From the NCBI GenBank assembly GCA_010356995.1, contig ML996705.1, forward strand, positions 558,001 through 622,000: a stretch of 64,000 bases of DNA, in the 5' to 3' direction. Both the position numbers and the translations under genes were made by a program. The notes below the pieces were generated by a model, which did not search any database, had not been told where the DNA came from, and was given only the letters and a program-made list of their open reading frames with translations. This document shows, piece by piece, positions 19,294-45,307 of this stretch. Each line of letters opens with the position of its first letter. Position 1 is the first letter of the stretch. Source of the DNA: Trichodelitschia bisporula (taxonomy: Eukaryota).

Positions 19294-19889
19294 GATGGTT
19301 TGTGATGGCTTGCTGTGATTGTTGTATGCGTATTGACCCTATGCTATGAGGTATGGTTGGTGTTTATGTATGAATTTTGGCGTGACGTTTATGAGTGGCT
19401 GGGCAGGTCTATGGGCACGTGATACTAGATGTTCGGGTTCAGGCCACTCTTTGATGCTGTCTCTGGTGACTTTCTGGATAGCCTTACTTGTTCTCTTTCT
19501 GCTCGAGACCCTATGGCGTTTGCCTGGTGTTCTAGGTAGCAGCTAGATATATGATCCAGAGTCTTGACTTTAGACAGAAGGAAATCTTTCTTCCTCACAG
19601 TCACGTTGAGAGCAGATCATGTCGTCGGTTTGGATAGAGTTTGGCGGTAGACACAGAGTGGGTCTGGTGTAGCAGAAAGGAATCGGTCGCAACGTTCCCC
19701 CGGCTGACGGCCCGCACGCTGGGGCCTGCACTGACGGGCGCGCGGAGTTAGCGGTAGGAGAGTCAACACCACGTTGCTCGCCGTTTGTTAGACAAGTCTA
19801 TCCAAATCATTGACGCCCATCCGTCTCTGCTTCTCGTGTACCTTCTTTGCGACCTCCTCCCAGCCCTCTCCTCTCCCCTCCGCCCCATC

Positions 19890-22284
19890 ATGTTGTAAGT
19901 CAATCAGGTTCCCATTTCCCCAAGCCACACAACTCGCTTTCCCCCCGCACTTTCTTCCCCTTGCGCCAATCCCATCCCCGCGTCGCAGCCACAGTGCCGA
20001 GGGAGACGCAGAACTCCCGTTGAACTTGCGCGTGGGTGGCTTGGGGGGAAGGGTGGAAGATACGGCAGTGCGGACGTGCAGTATGCGCAACGTCGGCGGA
20101 AGATCACCTGTTAACTTGAGCCGATACCGTCTCTTGTCACTTCGTCCCTTCAATCTTCCCTTCGTCTCCGAGTCTTGAATGCTCAACTCATCAGCCATCT
20201 TCTCCCCCGTCCACATCCCCTACACTCACCCCACTCCAACCTCCACCCTCCAGCTGCTAACCAGCAGCGTCCTCCCCCCACCCCCAAAGTACCCCACAAT
20301 CGCCACCACGGGTCCCATACTCGAGCCCAACAACACGCTGGACCCGACCACGGGGCCAGAGCACCAGCTCTCCGTCGGCGAAGGTGCGCTTCCCACCCAC
20401 TCCCCACCACCAGCTATCTAACCCCCTCAAAGGCACCTACATCCCGCGAGACACCATCCTCCTCGCAACCCCTCCGCCTCACCCCTCCGAAACCCCCCCT
20501 CCAAACCCCAACCCGCTCGCAACAACCCCCCACCCCCCAACAAGCGGCACCAAGCTCTCCCTCGCCCGCCTACACTCCGCCCCAGTCCCGCGCCCCGAAT
20601 CCCCCCACAGCCGCACCAGCACCTCCACCGGCGACGCAAGCAACCCCTCCTCCGCCCCCCCCGCCGGTCCCGCACCCATCTTCGGGTCCGGCAACCCGCT
20701 CCTGTCGCCCACGCCCGGCGCCACCCCCGTCCCCGCCTCCAAGCGGCGCAAGCCGAAGAGCAACATCGTCAAGAGCAACTCCAGCTTCATCAGTCGCGTC
20801 ACCGTGCACGAGGGTTTAGCAAAACGCATTGCCGAGGCGGGGGCTGCGGGGGCGAGCGGGTGGGCGTTTGCGAACGTCAACCGCGCGCTGCAGTGGCTGG
20901 ACCTGGGGGCGCCTGGGCGGGCAAAGCTAGACCCGCTGGTTAAGATCCTGTTTACGCGCGCGCATGCCCTGTGCCACGACGTCAATCCCGTGACGCGCAG
21001 TGCCGGGCATCTCGATGTGGCCGTGGGCTTCAGCACAGGGGATCTCATGTGGTACGAGCCCGTGAGCGGGAAGTACAGCCGGGTGAACAAGAACGGAGTC
21101 ATCCACGCAGCGCCCGTGGCGGACGTGCGCTGGATGCCAGGGAGCGAGAACCTCTTCCTTGCGGCGCATGTAGATGGGAGTCTCGTGGTGTACGACAAGG
21201 AGAAAGAGGATGCGGTCTTTGTGCCTGAGTGTGCGGATGCGCTTACCCCGGCGCGGATCGTGGTGCGCAAGAGCGTGGGGAGTAAGAGCCAGAAGACGAA
21301 TCCGGTGGCGTGGTGGAAGGTGAGTGCGCAGCGGATTAATGCGGTTGCGTTTGCGCCGGATGGGCGGAGGGTTGCGGTTGTGAGTGAGGATGGGTGTTTG
21401 AAGATTTTGGATATGCATCGCGAAGTGTAAGTGCACTCCCATCAAGGCGTCTCCATGGTGTAGTCGGTTATCACGTCGGTCTCATACGCTGTTATGATCC
21501 GGTCGAAGACTGGAGCGATCCGAAGGCCGCGAGTTCGATTCTCGCTGGGGACATTTCTTTTTGCCCTTCCCCATCACACCCTACCTAACCCCCTGGCCCT
21601 TCAACCCTAATTAACCTTTTTTTATCCAGCCTCCTCGACGTCTTCACCTCCTACTACGGCGGCCTACTGAGCGTATGCTGGTCCCCGGACGGGCGGTACG
21701 TTATCACAGGCGGGCAAGACGACTTGGTATCCATCTGGGCCGTCGACGATGCCGCCCTCGTCGCCCGCTGTCAGGGACATAATTCGTGGGTCACGGCTGT
21801 GGCATTCGATCCCTGGCGCTGCGATGAGCGGAATTATCGTTTTGGGTCAGTGGGGGAGGATTGTAGGTTGTTGCTGTGGGATTTTAGTGTGGGGATGCTG
21901 CATCGGCCGAGGGCGGCGAGTGTGAGGAGGGCGGGTGGGGGGAGCATTGCCGGTGGGGTCGGGGCTGGGGGTGGGGTTGGGAGGGGGAGTGAGGCGCAGT
22001 TGACGCATTTGAGGAGCGGGTCTGCGGTTAGTGGGCGGAGTTTTTTGGATGGGGCGTCTGATGAGGAGGGGAGTGCGAGTGAGGAGGAACAGGAGATTGT
22101 GCATCCTGTTGAGGCGAGGGCGAGGACGGCGGTCCTTCCGCCGGTTATGGCGAAGTGTGTGGATGGGCATCCGCTTGCTTGGGTGGGGTTTGAGGAGGGG
22201 GGGGTGCTGGTTGCTTGTACGGAGGGGCATGTTAGGGGGTGGGATAGGCCGGTTGAGGGGGGAGGGGAGGGGGAGGAGGAGTGA
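19890..22284 (+). CDS. creC: Carbon catabolite repression WD40 protein CreC; 4 exons
   Basis: Spliced MFVLPPPPKYP..VGEGTY..LATPPPHPSE; KRRKPKSNIVKSNSSFISR; WD40 region SYYGGLLSVCWSPDGRYVITGGQDDLVSIW and GHNSWVTAVAFDPWRCDERNYRFGSVGED. Introns 19895-20267, 20384-20432, 21427-21629. Confidence 0.95.
21449..21553 (+). tRNA. tRNA-Met(CAT), elongator type, with 31-nt intron (21487-21517), nested in creC intron 3
   Basis: Acceptor stem GTCTCCA/TGGGGAC plus A73; A-box TGGTGTAGTCGG; anticodon arm TCGGT-CTCATA^A-TCCGA; T arm GCGAG-TTCGATT-CTCGC; followed by TTTCTTTTT. Confidence 0.92.
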
Positions 22285-24432
22285 GGGAGGGAGGGGGGTT
22301 GGAGAGTGGGGGAGAGGGGAGGTGAGGAGGGAGGATAGTGTGTGGTGTAGGATGTGGTATGGAGGCGAATGGGATGGTGCCTTGTGGCGCGGAGACGCGG
22401 GGTAAGAGTAGATTGGGAAGTTGTGCTCGATCGGGTATGGATCAGGGTCGGGGAAGCTATTTCGGGCACCGGTCAGGTGCGCCGGGAAGCGGACCGGTCG
22501 CCACGCGAGCGGGTGTCGGCACGGTATGTAGCACATAATGAAGCATGGCTTCTGGTTTGTAACTCCGAACTGGCTCGGGGTTAATCCCCTCTCCTTTGAA
22601 CGGTTGCGATCACCGGTGCGATCGCTGGTAGAGCGCGGTTGGATATTAACGCCCACACCTACGCGGACGCTGAACCGGAGCTGCGTCGCTGCCTGTGAGG
22701 ATCGACGGTGGAGTGAGAGGGGGGAAGGGGGGGTAATATATCGGCCGTTGATGCGGGGTCGTAGGGTTTGGGGGTTGTGGATGGGATCCGGGGAACGGGA
22801 GCGAGGCTGGGTCACGTGCGTGGACGTCAGGCGCGCAAGGCTGGTATTTCCCAAACAACGATCGCCCGCAACCCGCTTCTAAACATCAGATCATTCTCCT
22901 AAGCCCAGCCATGGTAGCAGATGCTGGTGATAGAGCTAGACGCCGGTTGCAGTAGTACCTTTCTGAAGTCTCAACTCTAGAAGGCGTTAGTAGAATCCCA
23001 CGACTCAAATGATGAAGATACCTCTCAGCATACTGAGCTTCGGTTAACCATCACGTTCTTATGGAGTTTCACCATCGTCGGTACGTGCCGAATATGGCAC
23101 AGGAGCCTCTGTGGAGCAGGCACTGAGTCTCCTATTTCGTATCTAGAGGGCGGACTTCGCATGTCTATTCCTTAGTCGCCCTTTCCATTTCACTACATTT
23201 GAAAAACGGAGGATGCCCAGAGAAGCGCGAGATAAAGTGTATGCCAGCCCTCCCTTACAAGCATGAGCTAAAGAACCTTCGATGTCGTCTGGGTAGAGTT
23301 GAGATCGTTGACTCCATTAACAGATCGCCGGATCAGGCTCCGGTTAGACTTGCCAATTAGGTAGTACTCATACGCGGACTCTGGGCAGCTAGTATAACCA
23401 GACTCCAGATGTGACCATCGCCTTTTTACACCCGAACTCTGCACTTCTCTCAGCTATGGTTCAGTCTCAGTAACGAAACAGCATCCCTTAGACGGGCTAA
23501 TTGCCGACAGGTAGCTTACAAGTACATCCTCGCCACCACCAACGCTACCCGCTCTCCCAACTCCGACAGCCTTTGTCAACGACACGCCCATTTCCTAGAC
23601 TCCGCAACAAGATATCCAATAACCAGGCCCCGCAAACACACCCGGAAGAGACTGAAAACGTAGCTCGCTAAATAATCCAGTAATATAGTTATGGAAGGAG
23701 CATTCACATGTAAGCCAGGGACATGATGTAATGAGTGCAAGATCGAAGGAAGGAGCAAAGGAGGACACTTGGCATCGTGCAATTAAATCTCGAGAGTCTC
23801 TTCATCTCTTCCTCTCCTCGTCTTCTACTCCAATCTTTCAGTTTACAACAGATGTTTTGCCCGTGCACGAGCTCCGCTCCCATCATCAAGTATCGATATC
23901 CTGTCCCCGCCCCATCGAACCACTTCTCCGGAACCCCGTACCCCGCACCGGGAAACAGTCTCCTTGCCCCCCTGGTCTGGGGGTTATAAACCCCGCACCC
24001 CCGAGCCTCCGCCTCCTCACGCCCCGCGGCGTTCTCCCCCTCATCCCGACTGCCCTTTCCCCAGCGTTCTTCTCCTCTCCTCCGTCCAGCTATGCTCGCC
24101 ATCCGCGCGGAGCGACGGCGAGGCGAGGCAGGCACGCCACATGTAGCCGCGCGGAAAGGCATACTGTGTTACGCAGCACACAGCGTGGCAGAGGAACATA
24201 GACAACATAGCACAGGCAAGTAGCGTAGCAATTGAACAGCCATTAATTCAGCCTAGGCACACAATGATCTAGGCACACAATGATAGACACACACACACAC
24301 TCATACATACTCACACGGGTATCCCTCTCAAACCGTACGCCCTCAAAAAACGCCATCGGAATCCATCTCGTTCTCATCCCGCTTCACTCTACTCCCTGGA
24401 TCTCTACTCCGTCACCCCTCTCCTCCCTCAAC

Positions 24433-45214: not shown

Positions 45215-45307
45215 TGAACCCGACCCGACTTGAACGGATAACCTTCTGGAGACTCGTCGTCATTCCATTTGCTGGAATCAGATGCGCTACCGTTGCGCCA
45301 CGGGTCC
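45215..45307 (-). tRNA. tRNA-Trp(CCA) with 21-nt intron (45251-45271)
   Basis: Minus strand reads GGACCCG TG GCGC AACGGTA GCGC A TCTGA TTCCAG^T CCAGA AGGTT ATCCG TTCAAGT CGGGT CGGGTTC A; T12 terminator downstream (A run 45191-45202 on plus). Confidence 0.92.

Follow-up and report, generated by a model that had tools for sequence, protein, structure and literature searches.

An intron-containing tRNA-Met gene within a spliceosomal intron of creC in Trichodelitschia bisporula

Introduction

Transfer RNA (tRNA) genes nested within other genes are already known in nematodes, flies and plants. Here we describe a fungal addition, a tRNA-Met gene that is itself interrupted by an intron and that lies within the third intron of creC in Trichodelitschia bisporula. 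The locus was analysed in a stretch of 64,000 nucleotides (nt), hereafter the window, which covers positions 558,001 to 622,000 of contig ML996705.1 (assembly GCA_010356995.1, forward strand); coordinates below count from the first letter of the window.

In Caenorhabditis elegans, 44% of 609 tRNA genes are intronic, and 56% of those lie on the host strand (PMC4999229). The worm examples, among them sup-7 (C03B1.2, intron 3), resemble the creC case: each is an entire tRNA gene with an internal promoter, located in an intron of a gene transcribed by RNA polymerase II (Pol II), and host and intronic tRNA can affect each other (PMC4999229). However, worms have roomy introns, in which nesting occurs as often as chance predicts (PMC4999229), whereas the creC intron is normally 46-71 nt long and grew fourfold. 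Host-tRNA pairings are, moreover, conserved between Caenorhabditis species (PMC4999229), whereas the creC pairing is found in none of 71 other creC loci. In Arabidopsis, 19 protein-coding genes host sense-strand tRNAs in their introns or untranslated regions, and the canonical ones leave host splicing unchanged (PMC6152437); splicing of creC likewise proceeds normally, in a fungal rather than a plant host.

Other described systems resemble the creC locus in part. T. brucei tRNA-Sec (PMC2943599) and Arabidopsis GUT15 (PMC6152437) share with it a sense-strand tRNA fold in a Pol II transcript that could be released by RNase P-type processing. These two lack a working promoter for RNA polymerase III (Pol III), whereas in the creC tRNA the A-box and B-box regions are intact and a T-run of its own follows, so that it would need no host. 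The MIR in intron 1 of Polr3e (PMC5358760) and the TFIIIB roadblocks of budding yeast (PMC5052057) are comparable in that a Pol III complex stands in the path of Pol II, as one probably does at creC. The Polr3e MIR is antisense and conserved across mammals (PMC5358760), whereas the creC tRNA is sense and lineage-restricted, and the yeast roadblocks are intergenic (PMC5052057), whereas the creC tRNA lies within a gene.

The literature that we searched, with partial coverage, yielded mitochondrial, animal, plant and trypanosome cases, and no nuclear fungal tRNA gene in a spliceosomal intron. Fungal introns are tiny, and a very small ancestral host intron, together with the tRNA's own intron, distinguishes the creC case. 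A Pol III gene of 105 nt in a fungal intron offers a compact natural test of Pol II passage through a tRNA gene, which is a strong roadblock in budding yeast; it would also show whether a sense-strand tRNA is contested between the spliceosome and the pair RNase P and RNase Z.

A complete tRNA-Met gene in creC intron 3

A sequence-only reading of the window had proposed a complete tRNA-Met(CAT) gene at 21449-21553 on the strand of creC. Rfam family RF00005 matches precisely this interval on the forward strand, at 52.8 bits (gathering score 29) in a scan of the whole window (E 1.7e-08). An E-value scan of 19500-22800 found the match again at E 8.7e-10, as the sole match in that interval. All model positions are aligned (1-71/71), which gives a cloverleaf with four arms above the family threshold. 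The gene measures 105 nt with its intron, and the mature tRNA would measure 74 nt without CCA. CCA is not encoded at the 3' end, where a T-run directly follows the discriminator A.

Both direct reading and the Rfam alignment place the anticodon CAT at 21483-21485. In the alignment, 33 bases after ..CUCAU are left unaligned, and these correspond to A37, a 31-nt intron and A38. The tRNA intron thus occupies 21487-21517, at the canonical 37/38 position. It contains TATGA (21493-21497), which is complementary to TCATA of the anticodon loop, as the sequence-only reading had stated. When the arms of the cloverleaf were held fixed during folding, UCAUA of the anticodon loop paired with UAUGA of the intron over all five bases, a second hairpin formed inside the intron, and the 3' cut site adjoined an unpaired stretch. 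This constrained fold is the only informative one, as minimum-free-energy folding of the precursor without constraints has no cloverleaf centre.

The invariant bases usual in tRNAs are all found in the nested gene: U8, A14, G18G19, A21, U33, a purine at 37 and R15 with Y48, as well as G53-U54-U55-C56, A58 and C61. The variable loop has the standard 5 nt and the anticodon is CAU in the Rfam alignment. Two pairs, U13:U22 and U31:U39, are non-standard and account for the two 'v' marks of that alignment. The second of these had been pointed out in the sequence-only reading as typical of elongator tRNA-Met, and U31:U39 is indeed normal in eukaryotic elongator tRNA-Met. Initiator tRNA-Met is marked by A1:U72, A54, A60 and three G:C pairs that close the anticodon stem. 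The nested tRNA has G1:C72, U54 and U60, and its anticodon stem, UCGGU/UCCGA with U31:U39, has only two G:C pairs next to the loop; because of these features, it is an elongator and not an initiator tRNA-Met as judged by the known identity rules.

The gene also carries what appear to be its own transcription signals. The A-box region, TGGTGTAGTCGG, spans 21456-21467 (tRNA positions 8-19), and the B-box region, AGTTCGATTCT, lies in the T arm at 21532-21542. Their letters agree with the D-arm and T-arm consensus of the Rfam alignment; both boxes had been named beforehand. The T-rich terminator that had been proposed is present as the run TTTCTTTTT (T3CT5) at 21554-21562, directly after the discriminator A, and is likely to be a Pol III terminator.

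Splicing of the tRNA-bearing intron

To place the tRNA within its host transcript, we used contigs of two public runs, X1 and X2, that were placed on 19700-22700, and relied on what the contigs bridge. These contigs contain three GT..AG joints, 19894>20268 (373 nt), 20380>20430 (49 nt) and 21426>21630 (203 nt). The last of these occurs in contigs of both runs and defines creC intron 3 as 21427-21629, GTAAGT..CAG, which joins ..LDMHREV to LLDVFTSYYGG just as had been predicted from the reading frame. A single X1 contig of 1397 nt is composed of 20268-20380, 20430-21426 and 21630-21916, and thus connects exons 2, 3 and 4 with zero differing letters. Because the three introns are removed exactly at the borders that homology predicts, we take the contigs to represent spliced mRNA. 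The full 203 nt are removed, and the tRNA at 21449-21553 lies wholly between the GT donor and the AG acceptor that are used. An intron within a tRNA within a spliceosomal intron is therefore what Rfam, the constrained fold, the spliced contigs and homology together describe.

Protein homology agrees with this joint. The frame of exon 3 (..LKILDMHREV) ends at a TAA that is the first codon read in intron 3, and it resumes at 21630, after ..TATCCAG, as LLDVFTSYYGG. Full-length homologues run unbroken as ..DYLKEQLLDAFTSYYGG.. where the window has ..LDMHREV / LLDVFTSYYGG... (the slash marks the intron), and they are collinear with the spliced product.

Two statements made about this intron beforehand need qualification. 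The intron was said to be four times the usual size, and this is so at the position of intron 3, where orthologous introns measure 46-71 nt, but not across the gene, in which intron 1 has 373 nt and intron 2 has 49 nt. Retention of intron 3 was said to give an immediate TAA. The codon is present (GT/G TAA GT, with the slash at the exon end), but it has no special meaning because an exon that ends in phase 2 followed by GTAAGT always reads xxG TAA; being generic to such introns, it is a weaker prop than it seems for any coupling of creC to the tRNA.

Truncated gene models at the same junction

The best protein match is a hypothetical protein of 372 amino acids from Trichodelitschia bisporula itself (P0001, 99% identity), which ends exactly at ..LDMHREV. 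It does so by reading GTG TAA into creC intron 3. This public model is a truncation, and the real CreC has 589 amino acids. A near-identical model for the C-terminal 218 residues was not found among proteins of 119-679 amino acids, and the exon 4 query gave nothing above 66% identity against proteins of 119-380 amino acids. P0001 has the 5-nt first exon and the two upstream introns right, but continues into intron 3. Since so short an exon is difficult to call unless transcripts are at hand, a transcript that retained intron 3 may underlie the model.

Three other public creC models, those of Cenococcum, Geoglossum and Trichoglossum, likewise terminate at the position that corresponds to 21426/21427, and no long intron is shown there. 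At one metagenomic locus that encodes a Cenococcum-like peptide (L056), an ordinary 55-nt intron occupies this junction. We therefore rejected the tRNA as the sole cause of the truncated T. bisporula model. In these three named genome annotations, the intron may often be retained or mispredicted. Altogether, many public creC models of other fungi and of metagenomes, among them P0006, P0084 and P0108 (also P0018, P0022, P0047, P0067 and P0074), end exactly at the homologous junction, as ..DFLKEQ, ..DYLKEQ and ..DFLKEK. Where junction-ending models come from metagenomes, such an end is expected of metagenome gene callers.

Age of the intron and origin of the tRNA

We compared the junction with 79 creC loci from metagenome contigs, which were scanned with an alignment of 22 CreC proteins. 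These are loci rather than species, with some duplicates, and no close relative is among them; in the best of them, identity is 57-64% upstream of the junction and 82-86% downstream. Eight of them stop short of the junction, leaving 71 that cover the position homologous to 21426/21630. An intron of 46-71 nt is present at this position in 35 of the 71 (32 by motif spacing, and 3 at about 58-59 nt by tblastn), while the other 36 are intronless there (23 by motif spacing, 13 by tblastn gaps). In all 32 motif-parsed intron-bearing loci, the offset and phase of GT..AG are identical to those in the window. No tRNA was seen in or near creC in any of the 79 loci, in which the single ARAGORN match is spurious, with an 'intron' of 2500 nt. 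The inspection of orthologous introns that the sequence-only reading had called for thus finds small introns or none, and a tRNA in no case.

The intron position is therefore old, and the ancestral intron was small (about 50 nt) and free of a tRNA. A lineage-specific guest in an ancestral host intron makes the direction of the event clear: the tRNA gene entered a pre-existing intron in the T. bisporula lineage. The even division between loci with and without the intron (35 and 36 of 71) indicates that it was repeatedly lost, or less likely gained, among ascomycete lineages. With the 105-nt tRNA subtracted, creC intron 3 retains 98 nt, which exceeds every orthologous intron; flanking DNA therefore came in with the tRNA. 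Because the tRNA carries its own intron, the insertion was probably a copy made at the DNA level and not a retro-copy of a mature tRNA. A blastn comparison of the tRNA, whole and in halves, and of the intron flank 3' of it with the 79 loci and the window gave only chance matches of 9-20 nt, and no second tRNA copy, repeat family or target-site duplication was seen in this material.

Probable expression of the nested gene and its possible effect on creC

In our favoured view, the nested gene is a nuclear elongator tRNA-Met(CAU) gene of the ordinary kind, with a canonical 31-nt intron, that was inserted into an old phase-2 creC intron and works as a free-standing Pol III passenger. We put the probability of this reading at about 0.7. 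The tRNA gene would have been inserted as DNA into a phase-2 creC intron of about 50 nt, enlarging it to 203 nt. It would be transcribed by Pol III from its own A and B boxes and end at its own T-run; processing of the pre-tRNA would then follow the usual tRNA route, with trimming by RNase P and RNase Z and splicing by tRNA endonuclease and ligase. Pol II would read through the tRNA DNA, and the spliceosome would remove the whole 203 nt, tRNA included, to yield the CreC of 589 amino acids. We take the tRNA to be transcribed on its own because all that a free-standing Pol III gene needs appears to be present. The promoter boxes and terminator look intact, which speaks against the class of Pol II-dependent intronic tRNAs that lack their own promoter. 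For creC, the tRNA would be a passenger that exerts at most generic interference.

Several observations weigh against this reading. Of 272 tRNA genes in budding yeast, 132 present a TFIIIB block to Pol II, and read-through by Pol II was seen at no tRNA gene (PMC5052057). An occupied tRNA gene within a Pol II gene should therefore cost creC transcripts, and to call the tRNA a pure passenger may be too mild. The recorded RNA type of runs X1 and X2 is itself a guess, and we take them to be RNA on the strength of their three GT..AG joints. In addition, an X2 contig at 21539-21659 crosses the 3' splice site of intron 3 unspliced, so some unspliced molecules exist, and X2 contigs also lie inside the intron (21459-21537). 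These intron contigs are compatible with an origin from pre-mRNA, retained-intron mRNA, pre-tRNA or DNA.

The nested arrangement might also supply tRNA from the host transcript, if RNase P and RNase Z cut the tRNA fold out of the creC pre-mRNA or the excised intron. The sequence-only reading had raised such a link, suggesting that Pol III occupancy, or cleavage of the pre-mRNA by RNase P, RNase Z or SEN, could couple creC output to tRNA synthesis. Some of the tRNA-Met would in this case be of Pol II origin, and any cleavage ahead of splicing would cost one creC message, so that the two outputs would be linked. The geometry suits this, as the tRNA is on the creC strand and wholly within the transcribed intron, with the candidate branch sites 3' of it, so that it would lie in the lariat loop. 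There are also parallels: T. brucei tRNA-Sec is made by Pol II, in a report whose authors mention intron-encoded tRNAs in worm and fly (PMC2943599); the tRNA-like RNA of GUT15 is processed from the last intron (PMC6152437); and tRNA excision from introns has been raised as a possibility in worm (PMC4999229). However, the nested gene keeps everything needed by a free-standing Pol III gene, including the adjoining T-run, whereas the GUT15 element is not transcribable by Pol III (PMC6152437). Spliced creC contigs occur in both runs, and cleavage therefore does not prevent mRNA formation; nor do canonical nested tRNAs alter host splicing in the Arabidopsis cases cited above (PMC6152437). We therefore consider it unlikely that the tRNA is derived from its host transcript.

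A direct effect of Pol III factors on creC appears less probable still. In such a scheme, TFIIIB and TFIIIC on the nested gene would stall or terminate Pol II in exon 3, and full-length creC mRNA would rise as Pol III factors leave, for example upon nutrient limitation, so that a carbon-catabolite regulator would be tied to growth-rate signalling. Yeast TFIIIB stalls Pol II about 65 base pairs upstream of tRNA genes (PMC5052057), which would here fall near 21384, in exon 3. The Pol III unit in the first intron of Polr3e lowers Polr3e expression by transcriptional interference (PMC5358760), and in worm there is mutual influence between the activity of host promoters and the expression of intronic tRNAs (PMC4999229). 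Yet the Polr3e effect is seen in the antisense and not in the sense orientation (PMC5358760), and the creC tRNA is sense; contigs that span exons 3 and 4 do exist, and the arrangement occurs in none of the 71 other junction-covering loci, and is thus not a conserved feature of creC regulation. It is just as improbable that the tRNA is a silent relic, a pseudogene that is no longer transcribed and survives as intron filler. The non-standard pairs U13:U22 and U31:U39 would fit a relic, as would the lower Pol III occupancy of same-strand intronic tRNA genes in worms (PMC4999229) and the failure of ARAGORN, which misses the gene by default and misreads it when introns are allowed. But the nested tRNA outscores the intergenic tRNA of the window (52.8 versus 46.7 bits), and its invariant bases, A and B boxes and T-run are all intact, as is the pairing between its intron and the anticodon loop; the U31:U39 pair is the normal one for its class, and the 31-nt intron explains the ARAGORN failures.

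The most far-reaching proposal is a nutrient-sensitive valve, to which we give the smallest chance. Pol III factors would stall Pol II in exon 3 in fast growth, or the tRNA fold would attract RNase P and RNase Z to unspliced creC RNA. The result would be a lower yield of full-length CreC, or else a 372-amino-acid form without the C-terminal WD40 half; Pol III shutdown would then permit creC read-through. If this were true, a carbon-catabolite regulator would be wired directly to translational capacity.

Detection of the nested gene by tRNA finders

In its default mode, ARAGORN did not report the nested tRNA at 21449-21553. With introns allowed, it found the same tRNA ends and misread the anticodon, proposing a tRNA-His(atg) whose 12-nt intron would lie at 31/32 and whose extra arm would be long. 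We rejected this assignment, as the intron position is non-canonical and the Rfam alignment has a 5-nt variable loop and CAU; a long variable arm and an AUG anticodon are also unfit for tRNA-His. These failures are due to the 31-nt tRNA intron, and default tRNA finders can thus overlook or misname the nested tRNA-Met.

The host gene and a second tRNA gene

The coding sequence of creC, all on the forward strand, consists of 19890-19894, 20268-20383, 20433-21426 and 21630-22284, in total 1770 nt that encode 589 amino acids. Exon 1 is the 5-nt ATGTT, fixed by joint 19894>20268 in contigs of both runs, which gives MFVLPPPPKY as in P0001 and homologues. It is followed by the 373-nt GT..AG intron 1 (19895-20267), in which no known RNA family was found by Rfam at E<=1. 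A 433-nt contig present in both runs leaves intron 1 unspliced. The borders of exon 2 and of the 49-nt intron 2 (20384-20432) follow from joint 20380>20430 with a '+3' shift, and the frame agrees with P0001. Exon 3 ends in ..LKILDMHRE plus GT (phase 2), as contigs and reading frame agree. Within intron 3, CTAAC (21585-21589) and CTAAT (21607-21611), both 3' of the tRNA, are candidate branch sites; the branch-site consensus is CTRAY. Exon 4, assigned by frame, contigs and homology, runs from LLDVFTSYYGG to WDRPVEGGGEGEEE, with the stop TGA at 22282-22284.

A query with the exon 2-3 frame retrieved 1052 proteins at E<=0.001 (8000 candidates scored). For many of the 120 best of these 1052 matches, the source gives the name 'catabolite repression protein creC', and PF00400 is present. 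Identity to proteins of 330-674 amino acids is 47-56% over 84-98% of the query among the matches listed, and exon 4 is 64-65% identical to the C-terminal parts of the best-matching CreC relatives. This full-length collinear similarity to CreC-named proteins, together with the WD40 repeats, identifies the host gene as CreC at the level of protein sequence. CreC is the WD40 partner of the CreB deubiquitinase in carbon catabolite repression.

A second tRNA gene lies at 45215-45307 on the reverse strand of the window and is apparently intergenic, with a run of 12 T downstream. The whole-window Rfam scan missed it at the gathering threshold, and a local Rfam scan caught it at 46.7 bits, leaving an insertion of 26 nt in the anticodon arm unaligned. 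ARAGORN calls it tRNA-Leu(CAG) by default and tRNA-Trp(CCA) with a 21-nt intron when introns are allowed.

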